DNA of 64,000 nt from an uncultured Candidatus Saccharibacteria bacterium (GTDB lineage Bacteria > Patescibacteriota > Minisyncoccia > Minisyncoccales > JANBVM01). The stretch covers positions 4,340 through 68,339 of the forward strand of contig CAZBMQ010000004.1 of the NCBI GenBank assembly GCA_964493485.1. Direction: 5' to 3'. The number at the start of each line of letters is the position of its first letter. Positions within the stretch are counted from its first letter, which is position 1. The notes under the pieces were generated by a model that ran no database searches, was not told the origin of the DNA, and saw only the letters and a program-made list of their open reading frames with translations. Both the position numbers and the translations under genes were made by a program. Shown piece by piece: positions 13,920 to 46,852 of this stretch.

Positions 13920-14609
13920 TTAATCAATCAAATTTTTAACCCTTTCAAACCACTGCCCAAATTTACAATCTTCGCTGTGTTTCAAAGGTCTCTTTCCTCT
14001 AAGCAATAAGACAGCTTCCTTAAAAAGTACAGGTACACGAGAAGAATCTGTCTTAACTTCTCTCAATTCTTCTCTAAAAGGAAGTCTATTTATAAATCCA
14101 TCTTCTTTGTTAACTAAATAAAAAGCGAAATATCCTTTCCCAGGAGTAGAAAAGCCATTTTTCTCTAAAAGATAAGTATAGACATCCATCTGTAATTGAA
14201 AACTATCATAAATATTAACTTCCCTGCTTCCTGTAGATTTAAAATCCAAAGGAGCTAATTCTCCACTTTCAAACTGCAAAACATCATCTACAGCACCAAA
14301 AAGTGTAGCTTTTAGTTCAGTATCGTAATAACGAATTCCTTCGAAATTGTTCCTCCATTTATTCAATAAGGCTTGATTAGGAAAAAGCTTCGCGGGAATA
14401 TTCGAGGCTATAATAAGGGGATGATTTTCGCCTCTAGCCCGATAAGCATCAAATTCCTGCTTTAAAAGTTGGTCTACTGCTGCATTCAAACTATAAGGAT
14501 AAGGAGGCGGTCTTCGAATTCCCATACGTTTTTCTAGCCAAAAACAAAGAGGACATTCCAAAAATAAATTTAAAGAACTAGGCGATAGATTAATTTGGTT
14601 ATTTCTCAT
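13920..14609 (-). CDS. PD-(D/E)xK nuclease, Cas4/RecB-like
   Basis: N-terminus SPSSLNLFLECPLCFWLE, DFK...QLQMDVY, and a C-terminal Cys. There is no CRISPR array in the window. Confidence 0.55.
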   Translation of the reverse strand: MRNNQINLSPSSLNLFLECPLCFWLEKRMGIRRPPPYPYSLNAAVDQLLKQEFDAYRARGENHPLIIASNIPAKLFPNQALLNKWRNNFEGIRYYDTELKATLFGAVDDVLQFESGELAPLDFKSTGSREVNIYDSFQLQMDVYTYLLEKNGFSTPGKGYFAFYLVNKEDGFINRLPFREELREVKTDSSRVPVLFKEAVLLLRGKRPLKHSEDCKFGQWFERVKNLID

Positions 14610-14620
14610 ATATTTATCAT

Positions 14621-15345
14621 ATCACATTTCCCCTATTACTGGTAGAGCAATAAAGAAGGTGGTACCTTTGCCTCTGCCTTTACTTTTAACACGAATTGTG
14701 CCTTTGTGAGCTTTTATGATGTGTTTGACAATAAAGAGACCTAAGCCTGAACCATTGGGATGTAAAGAAGTAGCTTTTTCTCCACGATAGAAAAGCTTAA
14801 AGAGATTCTCTTTATCTTCCTTATCTAATCCTATGCCTGAGTCTTTAATTGTAAATTGAATAAGTTGTTTATCCTTTTGCTTTTTAAGAGAAAGTGAGAT
14901 CTCAATCCTGCCTTTGTCTGAATACAAGATAGCATTATCAATTAGTCTTGAAATAGCTCTTTTTAACATTTCTGAATCTGCTAATGTGGTTGGCAGAGGT
15001 TCTTTTGGCTTTGTGAAGGTTATTCTCAATTTATTTGCTCTAGCTAACGGTTTAAAATACTCTAGAAGTGTATATATGATATCCTCAATTTGGCATGGAG
15101 AAAGATTAAGATGGAATGTTCCTCCTACAAGGGTTTGAGCTAATAAAATATCATCTAATAATGTAGAAAGTCTTTCTGAAGAAAGATATGATTTCTTAAT
15201 GAATTCTTTTAGCTTCTTTCCCTTGACTGAACCCTCTGCCATCATTGAAAGCATCCCTTTTATGATAGAAACAGGAGTTCTTAATTGATGATTCACTACC
15301 TTGAGGAATTCTGTTTTCATTTCAGAAAGGGCTTTGATGTGCTTG
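14621..15345. repeat. 725-bp direct repeat, copy 1 (kinase core of HK1)
   Basis: It matches 17069..17793. I traced both boundaries by eye. The encoded 241 aa and the antisense 74-aa ORFs (14914..15138 and 17362..17586) are identical in the ORF track. Confidence 0.85.
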
Positions 15346-15932
15346 GATGCCTCTTTTAGATCGACATATGCTTTTTTTAGTTCTAAACTTATTTTTTCTT
15401 CATTTAATGTCTTTTCCACCAAACCAGAGCTAACCCATCCTACAATTAAAAAAGACATAATTTGCAAAATTGGTTTAAAAAAATGAACATAAGATGGAGA
15501 AAAATTTATAGTTAAAATGAATTCTATTCCGATTATCAAACTTGCCATTCCTGCAATAAAAAGAGGAAGAAATTCATCAAGAAACAGAATAGAAACTGCT
15601 ATTAAAAGAAAAAACAGAAATACAAAATTTCCACCTATGGAACCATCATAACAAATTGCAAAAGCGCTTATTACTGAAATTAAAACATAACTATGTATTA
15701 TATCTCCTATTCTCTGAGGAAAAATTCTTTTTATTCCTGTAAAATAAAGAGAAAACAAAATTAATGGAACTCCACAATATAAAATGATTTCTGCAAGAAG
15801 TGTTTCTGGAGGCTTCCAAATATTTAGCTTAATAGCAATAAAATGACTGAGAACAAAAACTATACTAGTTATAGATTGAAGCTTAATAAAAAAGTCTCTG
15901 GGATCTTTAATCGGACGAGTGATTTTTCTCAT
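14622..15932 (-). CDS. Membrane sensor histidine kinase (HK1)
   Basis: Multi-TM N-terminus. H-box VNHQLRTPV, N-box DNAILYS, G1 IKDSGIGL and G2 GSGLGLFIV are present. Confidence 0.85.
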   Translation of the reverse strand: MRKITRPIKDPRDFFIKLQSITSIVFVLSHFIAIKLNIWKPPETLLAEIILYCGVPLILFSLYFTGIKRIFPQRIGDIIHSYVLISVISAFAICYDGSIGGNFVFLFFLLIAVSILFLDEFLPLFIAGMASLIIGIEFILTINFSPSYVHFFKPILQIMSFLIVGWVSSGLVEKTLNEEKISLELKKAYVDLKEASKHIKALSEMKTEFLKVVNHQLRTPVSIIKGMLSMMAEGSVKGKKLKEFIKKSYLSSERLSTLLDDILLAQTLVGGTFHLNLSPCQIEDIIYTLLEYFKPLARANKLRITFTKPKEPLPTTLADSEMLKRAISRLIDNAILYSDKGRIEISLSLKKQKDKQLIQFTIKDSGIGLDKEDKENLFKLFYRGEKATSLHPNGSGLGLFIVKHIIKAHKGTIRVKSKGRGKGTTFFIALPVIGEM

Positions 15933-17068: not shown

Positions 17069-17793
17069 ATCACATTTCCCCTATTACTGGTAGAGCAATA
17101 AAGAAGGTGGTACCTTTGCCTCTGCCTTTACTTTTAACACGAATTGTGCCTTTGTGAGCTTTTATGATGTGTTTGACAATAAAGAGACCTAAGCCTGAAC
17201 CATTGGGATGTAAAGAAGTAGCTTTTTCTCCACGATAGAAAAGCTTAAAGAGATTCTCTTTATCTTCCTTATCTAATCCTATGCCTGAGTCTTTAATTGT
17301 AAATTGAATAAGTTGTTTATCCTTTTGCTTTTTAAGAGAAAGTGAGATCTCAATCCTGCCTTTGTCTGAATACAAGATAGCATTATCAATTAGTCTTGAA
17401 ATAGCTCTTTTTAACATTTCTGAATCTGCTAATGTGGTTGGCAGAGGTTCTTTTGGCTTTGTGAAGGTTATTCTCAATTTATTTGCTCTAGCTAACGGTT
17501 TAAAATACTCTAGAAGTGTATATATGATATCCTCAATTTGGCATGGAGAAAGATTAAGATGGAATGTTCCTCCTACAAGGGTTTGAGCTAATAAAATATC
17601 ATCTAATAATGTAGAAAGTCTTTCTGAAGAAAGATATGATTTCTTAATGAATTCTTTTAGCTTCTTTCCCTTGACTGAACCCTCTGCCATCATTGAAAGC
17701 ATCCCTTTTATGATAGAAACAGGAGTTCTTAATTGATGATTCACTACCTTGAGGAATTCTGTTTTCATTTCAGAAAGGGCTTTGATGTGCTTG
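17069..17793. repeat. 725-bp direct repeat, copy 2 (kinase core of HK2)
   Basis: See 14621..15345; the offset is 2448 bp. Confidence 0.85.
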
Positions 17794-18671
17794 TAGGCTT
17801 TTTTAAGCTTTCTGCTCAATTCCTCCATTTGTTCCCTTCTTTCAATTTCTCTATGGGTAGATTTTATTAAAAGATACCCAAATATACAAAACAAAAAGAA
17901 AATCACGCTTGTTAATATTCTCAAGGAAATAGTCGGCATTATCAATGGAAGCACTGATAAAGAAAAACCAATCACTCCCACTAAAATTTCTGTAAAAATA
18001 ACCTTAATTGCAAAAAGGTGATACTTAATAATGGCAAAAGCAATAACCAAAGGAAAAAGTGGAAGAAAAAAATTGCCATAAGGAAAAAGTTCTATCCCAT
18101 ACCATTGAGGAATATTGAAAAATCCGCCTGTAATAGTACCAATAGCCAGGGCTAAAATAAGATAAGCTGTCTGTTTCTTTTTTTCACCTTCAAGCTCAGG
18201 ATAATTTTTAATCAATAATCCAAAAGTAACTCCTGCAAGAACGAAAGACCATAGAAAAGTTAGATTGGCTCCGGGACCTGCAATTGGCCAATAGGGGTAA
18301 AACCAATAAGCTTTTGTTTTTGAAATATAAAAAGGAGAAAATACTAAAAGCAGAAAGATGAGAGTTATAATATAAAGAAAAAACAACAATCTCTTATTTT
18401 TTTGAATTAAATCCAAAAATACCAACACGAGATGAAGCAGAATTACAGACGAGAATAATGAACTAAACATCAATAGACGGAGAAATAAAAAGCTCTCATT
18501 TTTATTTTCTGCCATCTGCCAAAACCCATAGTTTATCTGCCAAAAAGCCACAGATAAACTTAACAGAAAAAATATTCTGCTTTCTCTTTCTTTTCTTTTC
18601 AAAAGGACAAAAATTCCCAAACAAAGAATAAAAAAGCCATTTACAAAAGCTGAAATGGCAATGAAATTCAT
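17070..18671 (-). CDS. Membrane sensor histidine kinase (HK2) with 7TM-type N-terminal domain
   Basis: 533 aa with ~7 predicted TM helices, followed by DHp/CA identical to HK1. The start ATG overlaps the stop of the upstream methyltransferase (ATGA at 18668-18671). Confidence 0.85.
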   Translation of the reverse strand: MNFIAISAFVNGFFILCLGIFVLLKRKERESRIFFLLSLSVAFWQINYGFWQMAENKNESFLFLRLLMFSSLFSSVILLHLVLVFLDLIQKNKRLLFFLYIITLIFLLLVFSPFYISKTKAYWFYPYWPIAGPGANLTFLWSFVLAGVTFGLLIKNYPELEGEKKKQTAYLILALAIGTITGGFFNIPQWYGIELFPYGNFFLPLFPLVIAFAIIKYHLFAIKVIFTEILVGVIGFSLSVLPLIMPTISLRILTSVIFFLFCIFGYLLIKSTHREIERREQMEELSRKLKKAYKHIKALSEMKTEFLKVVNHQLRTPVSIIKGMLSMMAEGSVKGKKLKEFIKKSYLSSERLSTLLDDILLAQTLVGGTFHLNLSPCQIEDIIYTLLEYFKPLARANKLRITFTKPKEPLPTTLADSEMLKRAISRLIDNAILYSDKGRIEISLSLKKQKDKQLIQFTIKDSGIGLDKEDKENLFKLFYRGEKATSLHPNGSGLGLFIVKHIIKAHKGTIRVKSKGRGKGTTFFIALPVIGEM

Positions 18672-19507
18672 AATAAAAAAGGCTTATTTGCTTTGTTTAC
18701 AAAAAATTGTTCTGCAAAAGTCAATTTAAATTCTGGATTTTCAAAACCAACAGAAAGCAACAGCTTTTCACATTCTTCTTTGGTTATTCGATGATAAATC
18801 CCTTTCTTCAGCTTTTCCCTGAAAGGCTTTGCCCATTTAACCATCTTTATGGCGTACTTAGGTAAAAAATATCTTGCTTTTATCCATTCTATAGGATTTA
18901 AAAGATAACCCATATATTTTAAAGCTCCTTTTACAGGATTTAAATCAACTCTCATAAAGCTCCATATTAATACTCCTCCCGGTTTTAATATTCTATAAAG
19001 TTCTTTAAAAATCTCTACTAAAGCTTCCTTTCCTGTTTTTCCTTGTGAGAAAGGAATGTCTTGAATCACCTTGCTGGCTCCAATTATATCAAAAGAATTA
19101 TCAGAAAATGGTAATTTCTCGCGAAGATCAACTTTTTTCAAGCTTACATCAAAGTATCCCAAAGCCTCAAGTTTTTCTTTTGCTCCATCAAGAAATATGT
19201 CGCTTGCACAAACTTTTGCTTTCATTCCAAATCCAAAATTCTTAGTAATTTCTTTCATTGCTCTTACAATTAAGAAAGCTCTTCCGCATCCTATCTCTAA
19301 TACTTCAACTATATCTTGTTTCTCTGTTAATTTTGAAACGATAGGTTCTAAAAATTCTTTGAAAACCTGAAATTCCTTACGATATGGAGGAGAATTTAGG
19401 AAAATCTTACCCTCCTTTGTATCAAGAAAATCCATATATTCTTTCCAAAACCTGTACTCTTCTACTCTTTGGATCAAAGCTACTTTCTGCTGGTCTTCAA
19501 TTAACAT
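18668..19507 (-). CDS. Class I SAM-dependent methyltransferase with C-terminal extension (HK-associated type)
   Basis: The motif I region VLEIGCGRAF and a post-I acidic residue are present, along with LKPGGVLIW. It is paralogous to 29724.. and 33708... Confidence 0.7.
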   Translation of the reverse strand: MLIEDQQKVALIQRVEEYRFWKEYMDFLDTKEGKIFLNSPPYRKEFQVFKEFLEPIVSKLTEKQDIVEVLEIGCGRAFLIVRAMKEITKNFGFGMKAKVCASDIFLDGAKEKLEALGYFDVSLKKVDLREKLPFSDNSFDIIGASKVIQDIPFSQGKTGKEALVEIFKELYRILKPGGVLIWSFMRVDLNPVKGALKYMGYLLNPIEWIKARYFLPKYAIKMVKWAKPFREKLKKGIYHRITKEECEKLLLSVGFENPEFKLTFAEQFFVNKANKPFLL

Positions 19508-19625: not shown

Positions 19626-20228
19626 CTAAGTGAGCTTCACCTTTAATATTGAAACAATCCCTGATTTTATTAAACCCTCCCTTTCTACTCTTAGATTATT
19701 CTTTTTCAACAAATTAGGTAACCCTCCACTTGAAATAAACTCCCTAAAACAATTATAATTCTCTTTGCCTGCTGCGAATTCTACTGTTTTCAATATAAAA
19801 GAAAAAATATTTTTAGGTAACGGAGAACTAAAATCAACAAATATCAAACTCCCCTCTCTTTTTACCACTCTTTTCATTTCAAGAATTGTTTTATCTCTTT
19901 CAGCTTTTTTCATCTCGTGCAGTCCGAAAGAAACAGATACAAAATCAAAAGAATTGTCCTCAAAAGGTAATTTTGTTGCGTTTCCAACATAGAAAGAAAC
20001 ATCATTAAGACTCAATCTTTGTTTTTTTCTTTCAGCAAACTCAATCATTTCTTTTCTCTTATCTATCCCTACAGCTGATATTCCTTTTTCTCTGTAATGA
20101 AATACCTGGTCTCCTGTTCCACAGCAAACATCTAAAACAATATCTCCTGCCTTCATTCCAGCAAACTCAGGAATGTAATCCCTTAAATCTTTTAATAAAG
20201 GGTCTATAATTTTTGAATAAAAACACAT
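19626..20228 (-). CDS. Class I SAM-dependent methyltransferase (UbiE/Methyltransf_11-like)
   Basis: VLDVCCGTGD, FDFVSVSFGLHEM and REGSLIFVDF are present. I prefer the start at MCFYSK (20228), just after the stop of the upstream gene. Confidence 0.75.
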   Translation of the reverse strand: MCFYSKIIDPLLKDLRDYIPEFAGMKAGDIVLDVCCGTGDQVFHYREKGISAVGIDKRKEMIEFAERKKQRLSLNDVSFYVGNATKLPFEDNSFDFVSVSFGLHEMKKAERDKTILEMKRVVKREGSLIFVDFSSPLPKNIFSFILKTVEFAAGKENYNCFREFISSGGLPNLLKKNNLRVEREGLIKSGIVSILKVKLT

Positions 20229-20229
20229 A

Positions 20230-20850
20230 TTATTGTCTTTTCTGCTCTTCAATAACAATTAATGCATGGAGGTCTTGATATAATCTATAGTTTTTGGGCA
20301 GATTTCCCTGGAATAGTTTTTGCAAAGAATCATATGAAAAATTCTCTGATAATCTATATCTCTTTGCTAAACGCCTAGTGTATTCATCGATAACAAAAAT
20401 AGGTTTATCAAGCGCATAAAGCAAAATACTATCTGTTGTCTCTTTGCCTAACCCTTTAAGAGAAAGTAATTCTTTTCTTAATTTCTCCAGCTTCTGTTTT
20501 TTCATTTCTTTAATATCTCCGTATGTTTCAACAATAAATTTTGCCAAACCAAAAAGGTATCCTGCTTTTTGTTTATAAAAACCAGAAGACCTTATTAAAT
20601 CAGCAAATTTTTCTTTTCTTTTTCGAGCATTTTCAAAAACTCCATATATAGAACAAATTCCTGCTTCTTTTAAGCAGGAAATCGCCCTTTCAACATTATT
20701 CCAGTTTGTTCGCTGGGTTAAAACAGCCCCGATTATTATCTCTTCTCTTTCTTTATAAGTTTTTGGTCTTTTGCACCATATTTTCCATTGACCACTCGGG
20801 TGCCCATATTTCTTATAAAGTTTTTGATACAGGTTTTGAAATTTATTCAT
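20230..20850 (-). CDS. Endonuclease III-like HhH-GPD DNA glycosylase family protein
   Basis: GAVLTQRTNW and the helix-hairpin-helix LLSLKGLGKETTDSILLYA are present. Confidence 0.75.
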   Translation of the reverse strand: MNKFQNLYQKLYKKYGHPSGQWKIWCKRPKTYKEREEIIIGAVLTQRTNWNNVERAISCLKEAGICSIYGVFENARKRKEKFADLIRSSGFYKQKAGYLFGLAKFIVETYGDIKEMKKQKLEKLRKELLSLKGLGKETTDSILLYALDKPIFVIDEYTRRLAKRYRLSENFSYDSLQKLFQGNLPKNYRLYQDLHALIVIEEQKRQ

Positions 20851-20859
20851 TCCTCACAT

Positions 20860-21237
20860 TTATGGTTCTCTTAACCATCTTAAAGCCTCATCTTTTGTCT
20901 TAAATACCTTCATATTCTTTACTCCACTTGCTGTTATCACAAAAGAAGCTACTGTTCTTGGAAGCACGCCACCAAAAATCGCAAGTTTCTTAAATCCAGG
21001 ATCTATAGCTAACTTTTTTATCTCTTCTGCAATATCTCTTCTAAACCGAGAAGAAATAGCTATAAGACCACTGCTTATGTCCACTAATATCAGCGCTTTT
21101 TCTGTAAGATTTTTTGCTATTTCTTTCCCTTCCTTTATCAGTTCCTCCATATCTTTTTCGCTAAGATTTTTTACCATTATTTTGATGTTTACTATTCCGT
21201 TTTCATCTATCCAAATTTTACTTTTTTCTTCTTCCAT
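20860..21237 (-). CDS. STAS/SpoIIAA-like domain protein (copy 1 of tandem pair)
   Basis: 125 aa. ...LVDIS...AIFGG...ASFVITASGVKNMKVFKTKDEALRWL has a STAS_2-like ending. Confidence 0.5.
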   Translation of the reverse strand: MEEEKSKIWIDENGIVNIKIMVKNLSEKDMEELIKEGKEIAKNLTEKALILVDISSGLIAISSRFRRDIAEEIKKLAIDPGFKKLAIFGGVLPRTVASFVITASGVKNMKVFKTKDEALRWLREP

Positions 21238-21254
21238 AATTTTTTATCTGAATT

Positions 21255-21659
21255 TTATTTAGTATTCTCTTCTCTTAACCATTTTAAGGCTTTTTCTTTA
21301 TTTTCAAAAACTTTTAGATTCTTTAATCCACTTGCCATAACTATAAAAGACACAATAGTTCTTGTAATCAGTTTTTGACCAAAAAAAGCTGCCTTCTCCA
21401 CCCCGCGAGATTCAACAGTATCCCTTAACCTCTTTGCAAGTTTATTTCTGAAGCTTGAAGACCTAATCACTGCCACTGTCCCCACATCAACCAAAACCTT
21501 TGCCTTACCCGGAACACTTTTTAGAATTTCCTCGATCTTGTCTATTAAATCCATTACCTCCTCTTCAGAAACCGTCTTTCCTACTACAACATAAACTATT
21601 CCGTCTTCTCTCAACCACACTTTACTTTTTTCATCTCGATTGTTCTCTTTATCAATCAT
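21255..21659 (-). CDS. STAS/SpoIIAA-like domain protein (copy 2 of tandem pair)
   Basis: It is paralogous to 20860..21237 (...VSFIVMASGLKNLKVFENKEKALKWL). Confidence 0.5.
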   Translation of the reverse strand: MIDKENNRDEKSKVWLREDGIVYVVVGKTVSEEEVMDLIDKIEEILKSVPGKAKVLVDVGTVAVIRSSSFRNKLAKRLRDTVESRGVEKAAFFGQKLITRTIVSFIVMASGLKNLKVFENKEKALKWLREENTK

Positions 21660-26793: not shown

Positions 26794-27387
26794 TTATTGT
26801 CTCTGATAAAGCCCTATTAATTCAGCTGTATCGAGAATATGTCCTTTCATTGCTCGTTGCACATCTTTCTTTCTAGAAGAATCATCAAGCTCAAGCTGAG
26901 TATCCAAAGCATATAATTTGAAAAAATATCGATGTGTCCCCGAAGGAGGACAAGGTCCCCCATATGAATGTTTTCTAAAATCATTTAACCCTTCAACAGC
27001 TCCTTCCGGCACACTGTCTTCCTCAATTTTTCCAGTATCAGGATCAATATTCCATACAATCCAATGATCCCATGTTCCCATTGGAGCATCAGGATCATCT
27101 ACTATAAGAACAAGGCTTTTGGCTCCTTCCGGCACTTCACTTATTTGAAGAGGAGGATTTATATCTTCTCCATCACAGGCATATTTTGAAGGAATTAACT
27201 GATTATTTTCAAAAACCGGACTAGTTAGCTTCATATTTTGAATATCTTCTTTTTCCTCCCCAACCGATTCTTTTTCGGGAGGTATAGATGATTCTTGTAA
27301 GGTAGGTTGCGACGACCTTTTTAAAAAATAAAAAATAATACATATTAAAATGATAAATATTATTATGACTTTAGACGTGCTCCCCAT
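26794..27387 (-). CDS. YbhB/YbcL (PEBP/RKIP) family protein with N-terminal membrane anchor
   Basis: LIVDDPDAP...WDHW and GGPCPPSGTHRYFFKLYALD are present. Confidence 0.85.
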   Translation of the reverse strand: MGSTSKVIIIFIILICIIFYFLKRSSQPTLQESSIPPEKESVGEEKEDIQNMKLTSPVFENNQLIPSKYACDGEDINPPLQISEVPEGAKSLVLIVDDPDAPMGTWDHWIVWNIDPDTGKIEEDSVPEGAVEGLNDFRKHSYGGPCPPSGTHRYFFKLYALDTQLELDDSSRKKDVQRAMKGHILDTAELIGLYQRQ

Positions 27388-27476: not shown

Positions 27477-28816
27477 TTTTAAATCCGGCTTGTAACCGGC
27501 ACCCTCACCACAAACCTAGTTCCCTTGCCTCTTCCTTTGCTCTCAACCTGTATTTCTCCTTTGTGGGCTTCAATCAGGTTTTTGACAATAAAGAGACCTA
27601 AGCCTGAACCATTAGGATGGAGATACACTGCTTGCTGGCCTCTGTAGAATAGTCTGAACAGGTTTTCTTTGTCTTTCTTGTCTAATCCTATGCCTGAGTC
27701 TTTGATTGTGATTTGAAGGAATTGTTTGTGTTTTTCTTTTGTAAGACCAAATGAGATGGTAATATGGCCTTTCTCTGTATAGAGTATGGCATTGTCAAGG
27801 AGACGGGCTACAGTTCTCTGGATTATCTCTGAGTCAGCAAACACAATATCTAATGGCTTTTTTGGTGTTTTCAGTATAATCTTTAAACCTTTGCTTTTAG
27901 CTAATGGTTTGAATCTTCTTATCACATTCTCAATGATTTCCTTGACATTGCAGGAAGAGAGATAGATTCTGGGAGGACTGCCAATTAAGCTTTGGGCTAC
28001 CAAGATGTCATCTAGTATGACACTGAGTCTCTCTGAAGCAAGATAGAGCTTCTTGATAAAATCCTTTTTCTTTTCTTCAGACAGGGTTCCTTCTGTTAGC
28101 ATTGAGGACATACCTTTAATGATTGAAACAGGGGTTCTCAGTTGGTGGTTGACTATCTTTAGAAATTCAGTCTTCATCTCAGATAGAGCCCTTATCTGTT
28201 TGACTTGTTCTTCAACCCTTTTCTCTAGGTTCTTGGACAGGTTTTGGATTTCTTTGTAGAATCTTGCATTCTGAAAAGCAATAGCTGACTGACTTGAGAG
28301 GTTGATTAAGAGTTCAATATCCTGAACTGAGTAAGGTTCACCTGATATCTTGTTGCCCAAGACAATCATTCCAATAATCTTGCCTTTTGAGAAAAGAGGA
28401 AGACATACAGAAGCTTCTATTCTTTTCATGTTTGCTTGGAGTATTTCAAGCCTTTCCTTTTCTCTTTGGTCAATGGCATCTTGAATAATTAAAGAAAGTT
28501 CTTCAAAGACTAAGGGTCTTTGGGTTTTTTCAAGCCAGAATGTTAGAAAGTTGTCCTTTACAAGAGATATACCGTTTTCTTCTCTGAATCCTATGTTCTT
28601 TTGTATCTTGTATTCTCCTTTGTCAGGGTCTCTGAGAAGGACAACTACTCGGTCCAGCTTCATTGTGTTTTTCAAGGTGTTGACAACCAGGGAAGAGAGA
28701 CGGTCAAGGTCTAAGATCTCTGTTAGTCTCTTGCTTAAGTCAGTCAAAACTGCCTGATAGCTGTAGAGAGTGTAATAAAAATATTTTGAGGCAAGTTTTT
28801 CAAAAACACGAAAGAT
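27477..28816. repeat. 1340-bp direct repeat, copy 1 (GAF + kinase core of HK3)
   Basis: It matches 31469..32808 (offset 3992). I traced both boundaries by eye. The proteins are identical from IFRVFEKLASKYF to the end, and the antisense ORF pairs 28053/32045 and 28551/32543 are identical. Confidence 0.85.
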
Positions 28817-29665
28817 GGGCCGAAAGAGAAAAATACCTATGGTTAGAATAAATGGGAAAACAATATTAAAAGAAATACCTGTAATAAATTTGTTGCTTAA
28901 AAAAAATAGCAAATAAGTAAAGAGAACGATAGTAAAAAAAGAAAGAACATAGATGGTTCCCCTGCCCAAAATAAATCTAATATCCATCAATCTGTATCGT
29001 GTAATAGCGTATGTGGTAGAAGCCACAAAGAAAAGAGAAAAAACTGGACTAAGCCAGAAATATTGAGAAGTGCCTTTTGTTAAAGGTAAAATAACATCTA
29101 CAAATATCGTTGGAATACCAAATAGAAAAATTCCAAGAAAAATAAATCTTAATTGACTTTTAACAATGCCTCTCGAAAGAAAATAATTTTTGGTTAAGTT
29201 ATAAAAAGCAAAAATTACCAAAAAAACTACAAAGATAAAATATATTATATATATCTCTCCCGTGATGGTTTGAGGATCCCCAGAGAAAATAATTACTTCT
29301 TTCACCCACAAATCTGTAAAAAACAAAAACCAAGTCAAACATCCAGAAATAGCTATATAAATTATAAAAGGTAGAACAAAAGATTCTAACCTCCTTATTG
29401 GAAAAATTAAAAGAAAATAAAGAGCAGGCGGAATTATTAAAAAAGAAACAAAATAGACTAATTTTATCCAAATTAAATGAGAAAATATCACTGGATAAAA
29501 ATAAAAATAAAAAAAGAGAGACCAAATACCCAGAAAAAAAGCAAATAAACCAAAGCTTATATTAATTTTATTTTTTCGGCCTCTTATAAGAACTATCAAG
29601 CTTAAAATTAAATTAATCAAGGCAGAAATTGGAATCAATATTTTAACATCAAACTCAAAAACCAT
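27479..29665 (-). CDS. 7TM-GAF sensor histidine kinase (HK3)
   Basis: 728 aa with a multi-TM N-terminus and a GAF-like middle region. H-box VNHQLRTPV, DNAILYT, IKDSGIGL and GSGLGLFIV are present. Confidence 0.85.
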   Translation of the reverse strand: MVFEFDVKILIPISALINLILSLIVLIRGRKNKINISFGLFAFFLGIWSLFFYFYFYPVIFSHLIWIKLVYFVSFLIIPPALYFLLIFPIRRLESFVLPFIIYIAISGCLTWFLFFTDLWVKEVIIFSGDPQTITGEIYIIYFIFVVFLVIFAFYNLTKNYFLSRGIVKSQLRFIFLGIFLFGIPTIFVDVILPLTKGTSQYFWLSPVFSLFFVASTTYAITRYRLMDIRFILGRGTIYVLSFFTIVLFTYLLFFLSNKFITGISFNIVFPFILTIGIFLFRPIFRVFEKLASKYFYYTLYSYQAVLTDLSKRLTEILDLDRLSSLVVNTLKNTMKLDRVVVLLRDPDKGEYKIQKNIGFREENGISLVKDNFLTFWLEKTQRPLVFEELSLIIQDAIDQREKERLEILQANMKRIEASVCLPLFSKGKIIGMIVLGNKISGEPYSVQDIELLINLSSQSAIAFQNARFYKEIQNLSKNLEKRVEEQVKQIRALSEMKTEFLKIVNHQLRTPVSIIKGMSSMLTEGTLSEEKKKDFIKKLYLASERLSVILDDILVAQSLIGSPPRIYLSSCNVKEIIENVIRRFKPLAKSKGLKIILKTPKKPLDIVFADSEIIQRTVARLLDNAILYTEKGHITISFGLTKEKHKQFLQITIKDSGIGLDKKDKENLFRLFYRGQQAVYLHPNGSGLGLFIVKNLIEAHKGEIQVESKGRGKGTRFVVRVPVTSRI

Positions 29666-29700
29666 TGTGTTTATAAATTAGCGTTATAATATTCTAACTT

Positions 29701-29733
29701 AAAAAAAATGCCCTTTCAATATATCAAAAGGGC
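29701..29733 (-). terminator. Terminator-like hairpin between methyltransferase and HK3
   Basis: Minus strand GCCCUUU-10 nt-AAAGGGC followed by AUUUUUUUU. The stem overlaps the methyltransferase stop codon. Confidence 0.6.
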
Positions 29734-30566
29734 TTTAATCTTGCTCTAAAAGTCATCCCTAAACCCCAATAAGTCTCAGTGGTTTCTATTTCAGTAAACC
29801 CTAATTCTTTAAGATATTTAATTAATTCTTCTTTAACTGGAGCTTTAGCTTCTAACTCTTGACTTCTTTTAGAAATCTTTGAAATTTTTTTTCTAAATTT
29901 CAATCCTCTGAAAGATTCTATTGGTTGCCGAATAAACTCTGGTAAAGCATGTCTTAATGCTTTTTTGTAGAACTTTCCATCGATAAGTGGACCTCCATAA
30001 ATTATACCTCCTGGCTTCAATATTCTTGCCTCTTGTTGAATTATTGGTTCCCATCCTCCTGCAACATAATTAAGGAACATATTAGAAATTACTCCATCAA
30101 AATAATCGTCCTGCCATAATACATGCCAAGTTTCTGACTTTGAAAGGTCTCCATCATAGATGAAGAACTTAGTTCTATAGATTTTTTCCAGCTTTTTCGC
30201 TTCTTTCTCCGCACCCCTTCTCATTTCTAATGAATAATCTATTGCATGCAATTCTTTTGGCTGAATTATTTTAGCTATTGGTTCGAAAAGAACCCCGGGC
30301 CCACATCCTATTTCTAAATATCTTCCTTCTTTATCAAGGATAAATTTCTCTATTAAAGAGTCTCTGTGTTCTTTAGCACATCTAATTGCGTAAACATATT
30401 TTGCATACTGACATCTCTGATAATCATCCCAAAGCCTCTTAAGCTCTTCTTCTGGGGCTAGAGATCTTATAATCCTTTCTAATAAATTTAACTCCTCACT
30501 TTCAATTATTTTTAATCTATCCATATTTTTCAATTTATTTTTTTTAAATGAGACCCAAAGTCTCAC
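29724..30566 (-). CDS. Class I SAM-dependent methyltransferase, HK-associated type
   Basis: YLEIGCGPGVL, GVISNMFLNY and LKPGGIIY are present. An alternative start is MDRLK at 30524. Confidence 0.7.
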   Translation of the reverse strand: MRLWVSFKKNKLKNMDRLKIIESEELNLLERIIRSLAPEEELKRLWDDYQRCQYAKYVYAIRCAKEHRDSLIEKFILDKEGRYLEIGCGPGVLFEPIAKIIQPKELHAIDYSLEMRRGAEKEAKKLEKIYRTKFFIYDGDLSKSETWHVLWQDDYFDGVISNMFLNYVAGGWEPIIQQEARILKPGGIIYGGPLIDGKFYKKALRHALPEFIRQPIESFRGLKFRKKISKISKRSQELEAKAPVKEELIKYLKELGFTEIETTETYWGLGMTFRARLKPF

Positions 30567-30615
30567 TATTCCATAATACTTTTTTCTAGGAAAAGGTCAA
30601 TAAAAAAGCGAAATC

Positions 30616-31212
30616 TCACCATTTTATCAAAAATTCATGCCATTCGCCTCCTTTATGTACGCATCTTGTCTCTTCACATGAAACAGAAGTTTTTACTATC
30701 ATTTTTACTATGCTTACATAATAACCCTTAAGAACCTCGCATAAAATAGGATGAAGTTTAAAATTTTCAATCCTTATGATTATATATCTTTTTTCTTTGT
30801 TTAATTCTGCAACCTTGAGATTTCCTATAGTATAATATTTTCTCCACATTTTAGGAGCTTCTTTGGCTACCCTATCAAGCGAAACAAAATATTTCATAAA
30901 AAGCCGGATTATAAGAGAGGCTTTTGCTTCAAATTCACCCATCTGTTGAAATTTCTTGTCATCGTAATTAAAAAGCCTTTTAATAGCTAAAAGGGCCACA
31001 CCAAGCAATCCTAAAGGATAAAATTCCATTGGGCTTATTTTTTCATATGGATAGCCGAAATCTGACATTACTTCTTTAAGTCTTTTCAAACCTTCTTCTC
31101 CCTCTTCTTTCAAAACAAATTTTGCTTCAGTTTTAAAACCTAATCCCCTAGTCTCTCCTTCCAATGCCATTAACTTATCAAACTCTTCTTTTGAAATTAT
31201 TTCTTTTTCCAT
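30616..31212 (-). CDS. Cys/His-motif sensor-like protein, family member 6 of 9
   Basis: C-terminus CEETRCVHKGGEWHEFLIKW. It lies immediately upstream of the methyltransferase-HK3 pair. Confidence 0.6.
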   Translation of the reverse strand: MEKEIISKEEFDKLMALEGETRGLGFKTEAKFVLKEEGEEGLKRLKEVMSDFGYPYEKISPMEFYPLGLLGVALLAIKRLFNYDDKKFQQMGEFEAKASLIIRLFMKYFVSLDRVAKEAPKMWRKYYTIGNLKVAELNKEKRYIIIRIENFKLHPILCEVLKGYYVSIVKMIVKTSVSCEETRCVHKGGEWHEFLIKW

Positions 31213-31229
31213 TCTTTAATTTTAACAAA

Positions 31230-31255
31230 AAATAAAAAAAGGCTTAATGCCTTTT
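31230..31255 (-). terminator. Intrinsic terminator after the 65-aa ORF
   Basis: Minus strand AAAAGGC-AUUAA-GCCUUUU followed by UUUAUUUUUU. Confidence 0.6.
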
Positions 31256-31267
31256 ACTTAAGTATCA

Positions 31268-31465
31268 TCAAATATCCTCAGAAAATAATTCGTATATTCT
31301 TTCCTCATCATCTGTAAAGAAATCCTCGCTTCTTTTTTGCAACTCTTCTTCATCATCTTTCTCTTTTTTCCTATTATTTCTCTCCTTCAATCCTTTCACC
31401 TTATATAATATATTTTTTAATCTTTCTCTTTTAAAGTATCTCGCCAAAATATATTTGTCAAACAT
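31268..31465 (-). CDS. Hypothetical small charged protein
   Basis: 65-aa ORF directly after HK4. It is Lys/Glu/Asp-rich and I recognise no motif. Confidence 0.35.
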   Translation of the reverse strand: MFDKYILARYFKRERLKNILYKVKGLKERNNRKKEKDDEEELQKRSEDFFTDDEERIYELFSEDI

Positions 31466-31468
31466 ATC

Positions 31469-32808
31469 TTTTAAATCCGGCTTGTAACCGGCACCCTCAC
31501 CACAAACCTAGTTCCCTTGCCTCTTCCTTTGCTCTCAACCTGTATTTCTCCTTTGTGGGCTTCAATCAGGTTTTTGACAATAAAGAGACCTAAGCCTGAA
31601 CCATTAGGATGGAGATACACTGCTTGCTGGCCTCTGTAGAATAGTCTGAACAGGTTTTCTTTGTCTTTCTTGTCTAATCCTATGCCTGAGTCTTTGATTG
31701 TGATTTGAAGGAATTGTTTGTGTTTTTCTTTTGTAAGACCAAATGAGATGGTAATATGGCCTTTCTCTGTATAGAGTATGGCATTGTCAAGGAGACGGGC
31801 TACAGTTCTCTGGATTATCTCTGAGTCAGCAAACACAATATCTAATGGCTTTTTTGGTGTTTTCAGTATAATCTTTAAACCTTTGCTTTTAGCTAATGGT
31901 TTGAATCTTCTTATCACATTCTCAATGATTTCCTTGACATTGCAGGAAGAGAGATAGATTCTGGGAGGACTGCCAATTAAGCTTTGGGCTACCAAGATGT
32001 CATCTAGTATGACACTGAGTCTCTCTGAAGCAAGATAGAGCTTCTTGATAAAATCCTTTTTCTTTTCTTCAGACAGGGTTCCTTCTGTTAGCATTGAGGA
32101 CATACCTTTAATGATTGAAACAGGGGTTCTCAGTTGGTGGTTGACTATCTTTAGAAATTCAGTCTTCATCTCAGATAGAGCCCTTATCTGTTTGACTTGT
32201 TCTTCAACCCTTTTCTCTAGGTTCTTGGACAGGTTTTGGATTTCTTTGTAGAATCTTGCATTCTGAAAAGCAATAGCTGACTGACTTGAGAGGTTGATTA
32301 AGAGTTCAATATCCTGAACTGAGTAAGGTTCACCTGATATCTTGTTGCCCAAGACAATCATTCCAATAATCTTGCCTTTTGAGAAAAGAGGAAGACATAC
32401 AGAAGCTTCTATTCTTTTCATGTTTGCTTGGAGTATTTCAAGCCTTTCCTTTTCTCTTTGGTCAATGGCATCTTGAATAATTAAAGAAAGTTCTTCAAAG
32501 ACTAAGGGTCTTTGGGTTTTTTCAAGCCAGAATGTTAGAAAGTTGTCCTTTACAAGAGATATACCGTTTTCTTCTCTGAATCCTATGTTCTTTTGTATCT
32601 TGTATTCTCCTTTGTCAGGGTCTCTGAGAAGGACAACTACTCGGTCCAGCTTCATTGTGTTTTTCAAGGTGTTGACAACCAGGGAAGAGAGACGGTCAAG
32701 GTCTAAGATCTCTGTTAGTCTCTTGCTTAAGTCAGTCAAAACTGCCTGATAGCTGTAGAGAGTGTAATAAAAATATTTTGAGGCAAGTTTTTCAAAAACA
32801 CGAAAGAT
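31469..32808. repeat. 1340-bp direct repeat, copy 2 (GAF + kinase core of HK4)
   Basis: See 27477..28816. Confidence 0.85.
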
Positions 32809-33633
32809 AATAGGAAAAAGAAGGATGCTTACAACCAAAATGAATGACCAAGTAATATTGAAAGGAATATCGCTTAAATATTTATTGCTCAAAAATACTA
32901 AGCTAAAAGCTAAAGCAAATACACTAACAAAAGAAAAAATATATATTGCTCCCCTGCCTAATACAAATCGAATATCCATCAAGCGGTAACGGGTGATGGC
33001 GTAGGCAAGGATAAGAGGATAAAGGAACACAAGAAAAGTTCCATAAGGAGGGAAAGGAATACCAAACCATAAAGGGAGATTAGTAAAAGCTCCACCTACC
33101 CCTAAAGCTGTACCAATTATTGTATATTTTATCTGTTCTCGTTTATACCCCCTTTCTGTAGTATATGCTTTAAATAAAAGATAAAAACTATATCCAATTA
33201 ATACCAAGTAGTTAAGAAAAAAATATAGAATAAAAACAAATCCTGCCTTTGGCCACCAAAGAAAATCAAACTGAGGTTCTATTGTTTTCACAAAAAAAGA
33301 AAAAGGCAAAGATAGTAAACATAGCAAACTTATAAAGTATCCAAAATATAAAGTTTTTTTTCTCTTTATATTTAACAATACTAACACCCAATGATGAAAA
33401 AAAGGAGCCATAAGAATGACTCCTATACTAAGAATTTTTACCCAGAACAAGGCTATTTCTCTATCTGTTGAAACCTGCCACATTCCATAACTAATACCCC
33501 ACAATCCAACAGAAAAACTCATTAAGCCAAAAATTTGGTTTATTTTTCTTTTCGGGTTTTTAAAAAAAACTAATCCTCCTAGAACTAATCCAGCAATACC
33601 ATTAATAAATCCTGAAATAGCAAGAGAAAGCAT
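31471..33633 (-). CDS. 7TM-GAF sensor histidine kinase (HK4)
   Basis: 720 aa. The N-terminal 7TM region differs from HK3, but the C-terminal ~445 aa are identical to HK3. Confidence 0.85.
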   Translation of the reverse strand: MLSLAISGFINGIAGLVLGGLVFFKNPKRKINQIFGLMSFSVGLWGISYGMWQVSTDREIALFWVKILSIGVILMAPFFHHWVLVLLNIKRKKTLYFGYFISLLCLLSLPFSFFVKTIEPQFDFLWWPKAGFVFILYFFLNYLVLIGYSFYLLFKAYTTERGYKREQIKYTIIGTALGVGGAFTNLPLWFGIPFPPYGTFLVFLYPLILAYAITRYRLMDIRFVLGRGAIYIFSFVSVFALAFSLVFLSNKYLSDIPFNITWSFILVVSILLFPIIFRVFEKLASKYFYYTLYSYQAVLTDLSKRLTEILDLDRLSSLVVNTLKNTMKLDRVVVLLRDPDKGEYKIQKNIGFREENGISLVKDNFLTFWLEKTQRPLVFEELSLIIQDAIDQREKERLEILQANMKRIEASVCLPLFSKGKIIGMIVLGNKISGEPYSVQDIELLINLSSQSAIAFQNARFYKEIQNLSKNLEKRVEEQVKQIRALSEMKTEFLKIVNHQLRTPVSIIKGMSSMLTEGTLSEEKKKDFIKKLYLASERLSVILDDILVAQSLIGSPPRIYLSSCNVKEIIENVIRRFKPLAKSKGLKIILKTPKKPLDIVFADSEIIQRTVARLLDNAILYTEKGHITISFGLTKEKHKQFLQITIKDSGIGLDKKDKENLFRLFYRGQQAVYLHPNGSGLGLFIVKNLIEAHKGEIQVESKGRGKGTRFVVRVPVTSRI

Positions 33634-33707: not shown

Positions 33708-34538
33708 CTATGAAAGAAAAGATTTATTTACTAATGCTTGATGAGAAAATACTCGCCTCCAGCTATCAACCACGAATCCCGTTTCATTCAAAAGCTCACT
33801 CCATTCTTCTATAGAAAGATAAGTATATAATCCTTCCTTTCCTTTTTTCTTTAATGTTCCTACATATTTCAAAAATTTATTTGCGATAAGAATCAAACCA
33901 GGATGTCTTATCATATCTTGAATAGAAGTAAAGACACATACATATAGATGCATATTCCTTTTTGGGGTCGACCATACTAGCTGTCCACCCGGTTTTAATA
34001 TCCGAGCAATCTCCTTAAATAACCTTTTTATCCCTTCTTTCCCTGGAATTCCTTCGTATTCTATTGTGTAAGGAATAGCAATATTACTAATCACCCCGTC
34101 AAATGTTTTATCTGGAAAATCTAAATGTTCACCCATATTACCATATTTTAATTCGAGAACTGGAATTTCTTTTTCCATCTTTCTCGCTGGCTCTAAAACT
34201 AAATCAAGCCCTACAATTTTCTTAAGAGTTCTTCCAGATTTTTCCCAGATTACTTTACTCATCGGTGCAGGTCCACATCCTAAATCTAACCAAACTTCTC
34301 CTGAATGAGGATCTACTAACTCTTCCATTGCTCTAACTAATCTCCTATGAGGAAGTCCCATCGCTGCATATTTGTATATCTCAGCGCTTTCTTCCCAAAA
34401 TTCTATTTCCTTCTTCCATCTATCAAGCCTTTCAAGGGTCTGCGAGTCTAATAATTTAGAGTTTTTGCTAATAAATAAATCTATCTCTCCTGAAGTGATT
34501 TCTTTCTTTTTAATTAATTCATACAACCCTACACTCAT
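33708..34538 (-). CDS. Class I SAM-dependent methyltransferase, HK-associated type
   Basis: WLDLGCGPAP, GVISNIAIPY and LKPGGQLVW are present. Confidence 0.7.
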   Translation of the reverse strand: MSVGLYELIKKKEITSGEIDLFISKNSKLLDSQTLERLDRWKKEIEFWEESAEIYKYAAMGLPHRRLVRAMEELVDPHSGEVWLDLGCGPAPMSKVIWEKSGRTLKKIVGLDLVLEPARKMEKEIPVLELKYGNMGEHLDFPDKTFDGVISNIAIPYTIEYEGIPGKEGIKRLFKEIARILKPGGQLVWSTPKRNMHLYVCVFTSIQDMIRHPGLILIANKFLKYVGTLKKKGKEGLYTYLSIEEWSELLNETGFVVDSWRRVFSHQALVNKSFLS

Positions 34539-43455: not shown

Positions 43456-43905
43456 TTAAAGACTGAAATCTTCTTTACTAAACTTACCTGTTTTTATTAG
43501 ATGGTCAACAATAAACTTAAGTGTTTCTTGAGGAGTATATCTTCCTAAACATAAATAATCTTCAGCTCCTGCTTTTAAGCCTTCTGCAATATTTTCTTCA
43601 TAACAGAGATCACTTAATACTATTACTGGAATATGTTTTGTTAAGTTGTTTTTCTTTAATAATTTTATAGCATCAAAACCGTTCATTTTAGCTATTTCTT
43701 CACGCGTCTTATCCAATAAAACATCGCATAGTAAAATATCCGGCTTTTCCCTATCTACAATTTCTATCACATTATGATATGAATAAAATACTTCAACCTT
43801 AAATCCGGCTTGAGAAAATTTATTCTTAAGAACCAATCCCAATAAACTATCAATAAGAAACATTAAAATCTTTGGCTTTTTTGATTTACCTTTCTGTTTA
43901 TCCAT
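43456..43905 (-). CDS. Stand-alone response-regulator receiver-like domain (possibly degenerate)
   Basis: KILMFLIDS...PDILLCDVLL...IPVIVLSD...EDYLCLG has receiver topology, and a phospho-Asp candidate is present. There is no output domain. Confidence 0.55.
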   Translation of the reverse strand: MDKQKGKSKKPKILMFLIDSLLGLVLKNKFSQAGFKVEVFYSYHNVIEIVDREKPDILLCDVLLDKTREEIAKMNGFDAIKLLKKNNLTKHIPVIVLSDLCYEENIAEGLKAGAEDYLCLGRYTPQETLKFIVDHLIKTGKFSKEDFSL

Positions 43906-45417: not shown

Positions 45418-46569
45418 TTATCTTATCAACCTCAAAAGCTTTTTTGCTTGATCTTTCTTTTCCCAAGTAAATCCAGGTTCTTCTCTGCCAAAATGCCCAT
45501 AAGCTGCTGTTTGGCGATAAATAGGTCTTAAAAGCTTCAATTGCCTAATCATACCACCTGGAGTTAATTCAAACACCTTAGGCACAACCTTCACTAATTT
45601 CTCTTCCGACACCTTACCTGTACCAAATGTGTCTATTTTTAAAGATAAAGGCTCTATCCCTCCTATTACATATCCAATCTCTACCTCGCATTTCTTAGCC
45701 AACCCTGCAGCTACTATATTCTTTGCAATATATCGAGCCATATAAGCTCCTGACCTATCAACCTTTGTAGGGTCTTTTCCCGAGAATGAACCACCACCTA
45801 TAGGAACAATACCACCATAAGAATCTACAACTGTTTTCCTCCCTGTGGCTCCTGTGTCCGCCACAGGTCCTCCTATCACAAATCTACCAGTATTGTTGAT
45901 ATAATATTTTGTTTTTTTATCTAAGAGACCTTTGCAGATGGGCTTAATTACATATTTAATAATGTCTGCCTTGAGTTTTCTCAAAGACACATCTGGATCA
46001 TGCTGAGCAGCAATAACTACATTATTTAATCTCTTTGCTTTGTTATTCTCATACTCAATAGTCACCTGGCTTTTCCCATCCGGTCTTAAATAAGGAAGGA
46101 TTTTCTTTTTTCTTACATAAGCTAGTCTCCTGGCTAGTTTATGAGCCAGCATTATTGGAAGCGGCATCAATTCCGGTGTTTCGTCACAGGCGTATCCAAC
46201 CACAAATCCTTGATCTCCAGCTCCTTGTTTCTTGCTTCCGGCTTTTCTCACTCCTCTTGCAATATCAGGAGACTGAGTATGAATTGTATTAAATACTGCC
46301 AATGTATGAGAGTCTACTCCATATTCCGGCTTTGTATATCCTATCTCTCCCACCACATCTCTTGCAATCTGACACACATCCACCCATGCCTTTGTGGTTA
46401 TTTCTCCTCCAACTATTACATAACCCATTCCAGACATTACTTCACAAGCAACACGCGAATATTTATCTTTTTTAATAAGAGTATCTAAAATAGAGTCTGC
46501 TATCTGATCACACACCTTATCAGGGTGCCCTTCTGTAACAGACTCTGAAGTCAAAAGAAACTTTTTCAT
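45418..46569 (-). CDS. metK: S-adenosylmethionine synthetase
   Basis: [29 protein letters not shown] and [19 protein letters not shown] are present. I prefer the start at MKKFLLTSE (46569). Confidence 0.9.
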
Positions 46570-46573
46570 ATTT

Positions 46574-46852
46574 TTAATATCTAATTTCAAATTCTTTAAA
46601 TTCATCTGTGGGTTCTTCAAAATCAATCTTCATATCTTCTACTTTTGAAAAACCAGGGCCCTTTTTGATAAAATCTATTATTTGTTCTATTTTTTCTTTT
46701 TCTCCCTCTACTACAATCTCTACTGCCTCATCGGGCAGATTCTTAACCCAACCTAAAAGCCCGAGTCTTTCAGCCTCTTTTCTTGTATTCTCTCTAAAAA
46801 AAACACCCTGAACATGACCCCACACAATAATGTGGGCTTTCGTCTTTTCCAT
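46574..46852 (-). CDS. acyP: Acylphosphatase
   Basis: [39 protein letters not shown] are present. Confidence 0.85.

Follow-up and report, generated by a model that had tools for sequence, protein, structure and literature searches.

The 64,000-nucleotide stretch of DNA analysed here, referred to as the window, spans positions 4,340 to 68,339 (forward strand) of contig CAZBMQ010000004.1 in NCBI GenBank assembly GCA_964493485.1, from an uncultured Candidatus Saccharibacteria bacterium. It carries two sensor histidine kinase genes, HK3 (27479-29665, 728 aa) and HK4 (31471-33633, 720 aa), whose 3′ parts are copies of a single exact direct repeat of 1,340 bp, here called R, and it is the origin of this identity that concerns us. 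Each kinase gene closes a cassette of 4 kb, and the two cassettes, numbered 3 and 4, stand head to tail with the same order of genes: a protein of about 200 aa, an S-adenosylmethionine (SAM) methyltransferase and the kinase. In cassette 3 these are U30616 (30616-31212, 198 aa), a stand-alone protein of predicted V4R/H-NOX fold with a sub-threshold Pfam V4R match; the class I SAM methyltransferase MT3 (29724-30566; Pfam Methyltransf_11/25/23), which gene callers start at 30524 to give 266 aa; and HK3. In cassette 4 they are U34662 (34662-35264, 200 aa), again of predicted V4R/H-NOX fold, the Pfam-identified class I SAM methyltransferase MT4 (33708-34538) and HK4. Immediately downstream of HK3, a gene of the PBP/YbhB family (26794-27387) supplies the unique flank that sets the left end of the first copy of R. 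All of these genes are encoded on the minus strand.

The two kinases share one architecture, in which a seven-transmembrane (7TM) sensor, different in each, is followed by GAF, HisKA and HATPase_c domains. The Pfam HisKA_7TM match is strong in HK4 (E = 1.6e-11) and weak, below the cut-off, in HK3 (9e-4), and within R the values are 6e-11 for HisKA, 9e-22 for HATPase_c and 8e-11 for GAF. The H, N, G1, F and G2 boxes are legible in the translation (VNHQLRTP, DNAILYT, DSGIGL, LFYRG and GSGLGL), and on these signatures HK3 and HK4 are predicted to be class I (HisKA-type) transmembrane sensor histidine kinases. The HK4 protein is P0121 at NCBI and differs from the JGI protein P0001 by H626Q. A methyltransferase gene directly upstream of a HisKA_7TM kinase gene occurs three times in the window (18668-19507/17070-18671, 29724-30566/27479-29665 and 33708-34538/31471-33633), and the same pairing is found on two other Parcubacteria-type contigs (L001, 8268-10804; L031, 9095-11941). 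Near these pairs are MetK (45418-46626) and one more methyltransferase (19626-20258).

Direct comparison of the two copies within the window gives 27477-28816 = 31469-32808 over 1,340 bp with 0 mismatches, at an offset of 3,992, so that the identity which the first-pass annotation had traced from both ends holds in a computed alignment. This is precisely the maximal exact run, as not a single base can be added on either side, and chance is of no concern for an exact match of this length. Each copy is encoded on the minus strand and consists of 2 nt past the TAA stop followed by the last 445 codons of HK3 or HK4; the shared protein runs from IFRVFEKLASKYF to ...VTSRI* and holds the GAF, HisKA and HATPase_c domains, while the 7TM regions outside it differ, again as the annotation had stated (24% aa identity over residues 1-215). 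The limits of R thus coincide with the stop codon at one end and with the end of the last transmembrane helix at the other. At the offset of 3,992 the flanks are about 25-33% identical, the random level, with the exception of some 200 bp past 28816, where identity is 68-70%. In a global alignment of the cassettes, successive 100-bp bins beyond R are 76%, 67% and 51% identical, the remainder ranging from 37 to 72%, and on the downstream side unrelated DNA begins 2 nt past the stop codon in HK3 versus HK4. Change-point analysis places the switch in HK3/HK4 identity at HK3 residue 284. The transition zone beside R in HK3 (28817-29020, minus strand), which encodes transmembrane helices 8-9 and the YAITRYRLMDIRF...LLF segment, is 67-76% identical in nucleotides and 54% in amino acids to 32809-33012, and it probably serves as the homology anchor for recombination.

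R has a shorter companion in the same window. HK1 (14622-15932) and HK2 (17070-18671), also on the minus strand and hereafter pair A, share an exact repeat of 725 bp, repeat A (14621-15345 = 17069-17793), which starts right after the stop codon and covers the last 241 codons of each kinase, with Pfam HisKA and HATPase_c domains and no GAF. HK2 is preceded by the methyltransferase MT2 (18668-19507) with an ATGA overlap. This is a second case of the same pattern, likewise ending at the stop codon. Have the two pairs also exchanged sequence with each other? The core of repeat A and that of R (pair B) are 62% identical in amino acids and about 70% in nucleotides, and their longest common exact DNA word measures just 33 bp, on which ground conversion between pairs A and B is rejected; the only moderate similarity between pairs that the annotation had noticed is thereby put into figures. 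The kinase core on L001 is 65% identical to the A core and 63% to the B core. The copies of repeat A flank NadE, and the JGI contig L013 passes cleanly through the HK2 copy. A separate observation on L013 concerns the methyltransferase open reading frame (ORF) at 19626-20258, where positions 19809-19959 hold 8 single-nucleotide polymorphisms (SNPs) in 150 bp against a sequence otherwise identical over 4.8 kb, a cluster that looks like a short recombination tract or a hypervariable patch.

Outside R, the two B cassettes are old. HK3 and HK4 are 24% identical over residues 1-215, as given above, and 54% over residues 216-283; MT3 and MT4 are 29% identical; and U30616 and U34662, at 58%, are no nearer to each other than to seven other paralogs scattered across the window. 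The 7TM sensor of HK3 is 56-65% identical to P0002-P0011 (60-65% for P0007, P0009, P0004 and P0002), and for that of HK4 the six nearest relatives, at 52-58%, are P0114, P0105 and P0099 (55-58%), P0073, P0072 and P0083; MT3 reaches 39% with the methyltransferase encoded ahead of an HK3-type kinase on L031. R itself is at most 74% (GAF) and 63% (core) identical to any of 120 homologs. Mutual identity of the two sensors is 24%, against 52-65% with sensors of other genomes, and so the paralogs are far more alike than orthologs only inside the tract. The named homologs belong to metagenome-assembled genomes (MAGs) labelled Nealsonbacteria, Paceibacterota or simply 'bacterium', and the nearest genome in a species-representative collection is a Candidatus Nealsonbacteria MAG with 59% over the core. 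On this basis the organism is placed among bacteria of the Parcubacteria type.

These figures bear on the simplest accounts of the identity, namely that the whole cassette was tandemly duplicated a short time ago and diverged fast outside R, or that purifying selection alone kept the two copies alike. The identical gene order, the head-to-tail arrangement and the start of R at the cassette boundary are what a tandem duplication would leave; but sensors, methyltransferases and V4R-like proteins are only 24-58% identical, and the sensors and MT3 are nearer to other genomes than to their neighbours. As everything outside R has diverged, recent duplication of the whole cassette is excluded, and as every synonymous site in R is identical between the copies, protein-level selection is excluded as the cause; the A and B cores, under like constraint, have come down to about 70% nucleotide identity. 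Both accounts are therefore rejected, and we give them next to no credence.

A direct repeat in a metagenomic contig could also be a false duplication made by assembly. Exact-protein look-up recovered independent contigs of the same organism in two assemblies at ENA, one from Logan and two samples at JGI; L023, L024 and L027 are MEGAHIT contigs with k = 141, L025 and L026 are Logan contigs with k = 31, and all five are 99.9-100% identical to the window. Such contigs enter R from all four of its unique flanks and end k nt into the shared sequence: L027, coming from the HK4-sensor side, ends 141 nt inside R, and L026 and L025 end 30 nt inside it, as fits k = 31. At repeat A, L023 ends exactly 141 nt inside copy 2. 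All four junctions, namely PBP|R, R|HK3 sensor, U30616|R and R|HK4 sensor, are present in ENA, Logan or JGI contigs, which rejects false duplication, and since independent contigs come in from four flanks and stop k nt in, the direct repeat is real in natural populations. A further end of L025 (SRR7051285), at 28893, lies 77 nt short of R, where the window has no repeated 31-mer; it may reflect strain polymorphism or low coverage.

The same contigs show that the two copies are not equally alike in every strain, strain variation being read here from assembled contigs, not from reads. In the ENA assembly ERZ27248458, seven sites set the HK3 copy apart from the window: 27516, 27518, 27521, 28724, 28772, 28790 and 28795. 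At the first three of these sites L023, which is anchored in the PBP gene and so carries the HK3 copy, has T, T and A, while L024, which is anchored in U30616 and there carries the HK4 copy, agrees with the window (C, A and T) at the matching positions; both contigs end exactly 141 nt after the last of the three. L024 also shows the HK3-copy differences near the other edge, at 28724, 28772, 28790 and 28795. Altogether ERZ27248458 has 7 differences in 510 bp of R, whereas its unique flanks have 0 in 12,476 bp (p = 1.4e-10 by Fisher's test), and 5 of the 7, like 8 of the 11 variants over all samples, are synonymous. From the end point of L024 we infer one further copy difference near 28634 in this strain, whose identical tract would therefore measure at most about 1.1 kb. 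How far homogenisation extends is therefore polymorphic among near-identical strains. The JGI contig L022 carries the window's alleles at 27516-27521 beside the PBP flank, and full homogenisation at the 3′ edge of HK3 is therefore real in some populations. One T>C variant is found at 28724 in the HK3 copy of one sample and at the equivalent 32716 in the HK4 copy of another (L027), and is thus a polymorphism shared across paralogs.

L022 (3,058 bp) deserves separate consideration, as its path, MT4′-HK4 sensor-R-PBP, contains the junction expected if 28817-32808 were deleted. The annotation had proposed that the repeats are substrates for deletion or amplification of the intervening genes and that variants lacking 28817-32808 should be sought. 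The predicted junction does exist, as does its counterpart at repeat A, where JGI contig L012 (2,616 bp) follows the cyclic path HK1 sensor-repeat A-NadE-HK1 sensor with a unit of 2,448; yet repeat collapse yields the same path, and both junctions are mimicked by unresolved repeats. L022 and L012 match the skip and the loop that assemblers emit for an unresolved direct repeat, and they neither prove nor exclude structural variants. It has to be asked whether the repeats are in functional use, with RecA-dependent deletion and amplification of cassette 3 acting as a population-level sensory switch that maintains their identity. The deletion junction in L022 and the amplification or circle junction in L012 are what such a switch would produce, and there is a precedent in Burkholderia thailandensis, where RecA-dependent duplication between direct repeats serves as bet-hedging (PMC12124856). 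Besides being the exact assembler paths just described, however, deletions and amplifications are unavoidable by-products of any direct repeat of 1.3 kb and need no selection, and we regard a selected switch as very improbable.

Relatives of the kinases reveal how the family as a whole is put together. When 119 homologs are aligned together with HK3 and HK4 (121 sequences), two types of kinase core can be told apart, X (EMKTEFLKxVNHQLRTPVSIIKGM) and Y (KAKSEFISIASHQLRTPLTAxKGY). R, pair A and the Nealsonbacteria HK2 ortholog have X-type cores; 75 of the 121 sequences have the Y type. The closest relatives of both the HK3 and the HK4 sensor carry Y cores, only 33-39% identical to the core of R, and GAF domains about 70% identical to that of R, which implies an earlier replacement of the module in this lineage. 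The family also contains pairs in which unrelated sensors are joined to nearly identical cytoplasmic parts, such as P0039/P0059 (7TM 16%, GAF 98%, core 100%), P0010/P0019 (26%, 96%, 98%), P0015/P0073 (19%, 95%, 96%), P0011/P0105 (23%, 92%, 92%) and P0033/P0097 (24%, 90%, 91%). The maximum-likelihood change-points of 11 such mosaic pairs fall at two sites only, HK3 residues 278-296, that is LLFQPIFRFFEKxASKYFYYTFYSYQ at the start of R, and residues 216-224, that is YAITRYRLMDIR. These pairs could be paralogs in one genome or alleles of different strains. P0010 and P0019 come from different sequencing runs, and their contigs are 98% identical in DNA from about kinase residue 270 through the downstream PD-(D/E)XK gene and unrelated upstream; the 98% stretch covers 1436-3526 of L029 and 1348-3438 of L030, and the 7TM sensor and the gene preceding it are unrelated. 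These two contigs are a sensor-swap 'allele' with the same junction as R in the window. No internal repeats occur within the related loci L001 and L006-L011, and there is no tandem partner kinase on the contig of P0011, an HK3-type kinase. Concerted evolution across the family may be hypothesised, and modular exchange is possibly general among kinases of the candidate phyla radiation (CPR). A wider idea, which we put forward tentatively and hold to be doubtful, is that sensor and partner methyltransferase form an exchangeable input cassette on a transmitter common to the genome, with recombination recurring at these two sites so that, in a tiny genome poor in response regulators, several sensors feed one output and perhaps heterodimerise. 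If true, it would be a bacterial counterpart of receptor clusters built of a 'variable ectodomain, constant cytoplasmic domain'.

We consider it likely that the identity of R arose by recent, non-reciprocal interparalog gene conversion. HK3 and HK4 would be ancient paralogous kinases, each in its own three-gene cassette, whose cytoplasmic halves (GAF, DHp and catalytic domain, 445 aa) were equalised by recent homologous recombination, presumably of the RecA type, with the HK4 version copied onto HK3. The tract would be bounded by the stop codon, past which the downstream DNA is unrelated, and by the conserved end of the last transmembrane helix; because similarity drops quickly upstream of residue 284 and the downstream loci are unrelated, recombination can resolve only inside the block. 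What is observed directly is an exact repeat with sharp boundaries, old divergence of the cassettes around it, four real junctions, and strains that differ in how far the identity extends. The mechanism and the direction are our reading of these facts. The HK3 gene of the ENA strain keeps edge-specific alleles while its HK4 gene matches the window, and this suggests that in the lineage of the window the transfer ran from HK4 to HK3. Conversion between the two genes is probably ongoing. No transposase, integrase or phage domains that would suggest another mechanism were detected among the 60 ORFs scanned, nor any RNA family besides one tRNA, and explanations by mobile elements are rejected. The identical synonymous sites, the diverged cassettes and the lack of exchange between pairs A and B also bear out the annotation's view that the pattern is pairwise homogenisation and not simple family conservation.

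Several observations nevertheless weigh against conversion in this simple form. First, conversion up to the last homologous bases requires resolution within an identical end segment of 21-39 bp, which is short, and in tract A as in tract B the end lies no more than 1-2 nt from a stop codon. Second, the window comes from a 100,436-bp metagenome-assembled contig at NCBI, and the identity of the interior of R, more than about 150 nt from either boundary, rests on assembly, the edges being those verified in independent contigs. Base-perfect identity in the interior could arise by construction, as traversal of a loop writes one edge of the assembly graph twice. L022 crosses R and departs from the window there at 4 interior SNPs, its 1.7 kb of flanking sequence showing none. 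It is conceivable that the repeat and its junctions are real, and that in the cell the copies reach only about 98-99.5% identity, a graph assembler or polisher having collapsed their remaining differences. Short-read assemblies (ENA with k = 141, Logan with k = 31) do break at R, L022 gets across it by leaving the loop out, contig ends in other assemblies hold fragments of HK1, HK2 and HK3, and another sample does contain copy-specific differences. Positions at the edges, however, are no further than a single read or k-mer away from unique flank and are not collapsible, and the window and L022 both have the HK4-like alleles at 27516-27521 beside PBP, so edge homogenisation is real there. We think such a partial artefact somewhat unlikely; moreover, collapse itself needs near-identity, and the biological conclusion would hardly be altered.

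The third of these difficulties is one of base composition. The GC content at third codon positions (GC3) of R (27482-28816 / 31474-32808) is 0.402 (179 of 445 codons), compared with 0.224 in the 5′ halves of HK3 and HK4 (p = 1.6e-9), and the shift at the boundary is abrupt. Across 56 other ORFs GC3 averages 0.258 with a standard deviation of 0.029, and the maximum of any 445-codon window is 0.384. Simple conversion between residents does not predict this value, and either GC-biased conversion that worked on R over a long period or a relatively recent foreign origin is needed; GC-biased conversion is not mirrored by repeat A, whose GC3 is a normal 0.274. Additionally, the Y cores of the sensor relatives mean that at least one earlier, non-homologous replacement of the module must be assumed. 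Could R then be a recently imported foreign GAF-kinase module that replaced one native C-terminal half and was afterwards copied or inserted into the other? Its GC3, above that of every comparable window of the other ORFs, its X-type core beneath sensors whose closest relatives have Y-type cores, and the existence of a related R-like gene (P0060/L028) with similar GC3 would all fit an import. Against it, a close donor is lacking among 5.8 billion proteins, where R is matched at 60-64% at best; the core of R is closest to the Nealsonbacteria HK2 ortholog (63%), resident pair A (62%) and P0026 and P0060 (60%); and a conversion step between HK3 and HK4 is still needed. We judge an import rather unlikely as the origin of the pattern. 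As to L028 itself (JGI Ga0180403_145810, 1,423 bp), this contig is nearly coextensive with the R-equivalent of the P0060 kinase (443 aa, 62% to R), has a GC3 of about 0.42, and possibly represents a repeat, collapsed in assembly, of a different organism that shares this architecture.

If gene conversion has indeed made the cytoplasmic halves identical, what would follow for signalling? Because the entire DHp, catalytic and GAF region is common to HK3 and HK4, the two kinases are predicted to share their response-regulator specificity and their dimerisation surface; judging by the sequences, two membrane inputs could converge on one output, and heterodimers would be possible. The sole receiver protein detected in the window, by tblastn with CheY and PhoB and by Pfam (Response_reg), is a stand-alone response-regulator receiver protein of 149 aa (43456-43905, minus strand), 33% identical to the response regulator that follows the HK3-type kinase on L031, and it is a candidate common partner of the kinases. 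Many-to-one wiring, possibly with heterodimers, is thus predicted in an organism with a minimal regulatory repertoire. If, in addition, and this belongs to the doubtful wider idea above, each methyltransferase makes the methylated signal that is sensed by its 7TM partner, in a logic like that of PhcB/PhcS, the cassettes would provide multi-channel self-signalling converging on one regulator. There is also a practical side: repeats of this kind interrupt or distort CPR genomes assembled from short reads, and a collapsed path can mimic a deletion variant.

The first genes of the two cassettes belong to a local family of their own. Nine paralogs of about 200 aa, 35-59% identical, lie within 30 kb of a very small genome (10880-11479, 11517-12116, 12158-12763, 25487-26086, 26162-26761, 30616-31212, 34662-35264, 38306-38914 and 40523-41179), and two of the nine stand first in kinase cassettes. 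A Pfam V4R match covers the C-terminal 40 aa in all nine (E from 2e-7 to 0.14), one of them meeting the gathering score. The AF2 model of U30616, with a pLDDT of 90, finds H-NOX domains by Foldseek (TM-score at most 0.68 when normalised to the query, 0.71 to the target) and, further, MJ1460 and the sensor domains of MopR/DmpR, so that the paralogs combine a V4R signature with a modelled H-NOX/V4R fold. The Y-x-S-x-R motif of haem-binding H-NOX proteins is not evident in their alignment. Invariant residues are C158, E181, C184 and H192, which we take to resemble the Cys/Glu/Cys/Cys zinc site of MopR/DmpR, and with the predicted fold in mind these proteins are plausibly small-molecule sensors acting on the kinases.

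Elsewhere in the window, three tandem ORFs (4205-5329, 5599-6633 and 7089-8261; 344-390 aa, no Pfam match) share patches of 70-74% identical DNA and form another local paralog family, the repeats D7 and D8 of this region lying at 4647-4723/6101-6177 and 6948-7008/8448-8508. Genes of the PD-(D/E)XK nuclease family (13920-14609 and 12779-13537) directly follow HK1, and such genes also directly follow the P0019 and P0010 kinases (L029, 2823-3533; L030, 2735-3451), with 25% aa identity between them; the association of PD-(D/E)XK genes with kinases could be coincidental. Two adjoining SpoIIAA-like proteins (STAS, DUF7793; 20860-21237 and 21255-21659) lie in the same signalling-rich region, and none of the scanned ORFs was recognised as a cognate anti-sigma kinase or phosphatase. 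The neighbouring genes are housekeeping genes (IMPDH, NadE, MetK, TruD and an ABC transporter), an Rfam scan of the window returned one tRNA only (tRNA-Val), and a scan for promoters and terminators gave no excess over shuffled expectation.

How does R compare with known systems? On the conversion reading it is a well-resolved case, backed by population data, of known interparalog conversion and not a fundamentally new kind of event. In Helicobacter pylori, the paralogs babA and babB combine near-identical segments with a divergent ligand-binding segment, and conversion between them makes chimeras whose tract ends lie in conserved sequence. What varies in systems of this type is a ligand-binding region at the surface, in the service of adapting to the host or evading its immune response; the constant part at the present locus is a signalling transmitter. 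A prokaryote-wide survey of interparalog gene conversion lists 26 genes, none of them a histidine kinase (PMC6053082), and our limited literature searches turned up no published case of paralogs sharing a homogenised kinase transmitter. As in the tufA/tufB and mtrA duplicates, a coding block here is near-identical in different contexts, its identity ends sharply and its flanks are unrelated; as in systems of concerted evolution more generally, the paralogs are closer than orthologs, and the process would depend on homologous recombination (PMC6053082). Unlike in the tufA/tufB-type cases, only the cytoplasmic half is homogenised while the other half has diverged, and it is recency, not long duration, that is documented. 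The pairing of methyltransferase and kinase has its own parallel in Ralstonia, in which PhcB is a methyltransferase making a methyl-ester signal and PhcS a membrane sensor kinase (PMC9102662): in both, a gene for a SAM-dependent methyltransferase adjoins one for a membrane histidine kinase, an analogy drawn from gene arrangement.

A further comparison is with the lineage-specific expansion of histidine kinases accompanied by domain shuffling described by Alm, Huang and Arkin (2006; PMC1630713), who remarked that there must be a mechanism that rearranges individual domains. Shuffling was inferred there from domain architectures at the protein level, and gene conversion is nowhere mentioned (0 occurrences). 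As in those kinases, the kinase domains of HK3 and HK4 are closest paralogs, their upstream sensors differ, and both are orphans placed away from a response regulator; unlike in that work, the case at hand offers 100% nucleotide identity, mapped breakpoints and population variants, in a small-genome organism of the Parcubacteria type. It would amount to an unusually clean snapshot of two-component rewiring, with old and different inputs joined to a transmitter identical to the last base, breakpoints mapped and strains that differ, and homologous exchange at conserved junction motifs would provide a concrete mechanism for the 'domain shuffling' that has long been inferred in histidine-kinase expansions.

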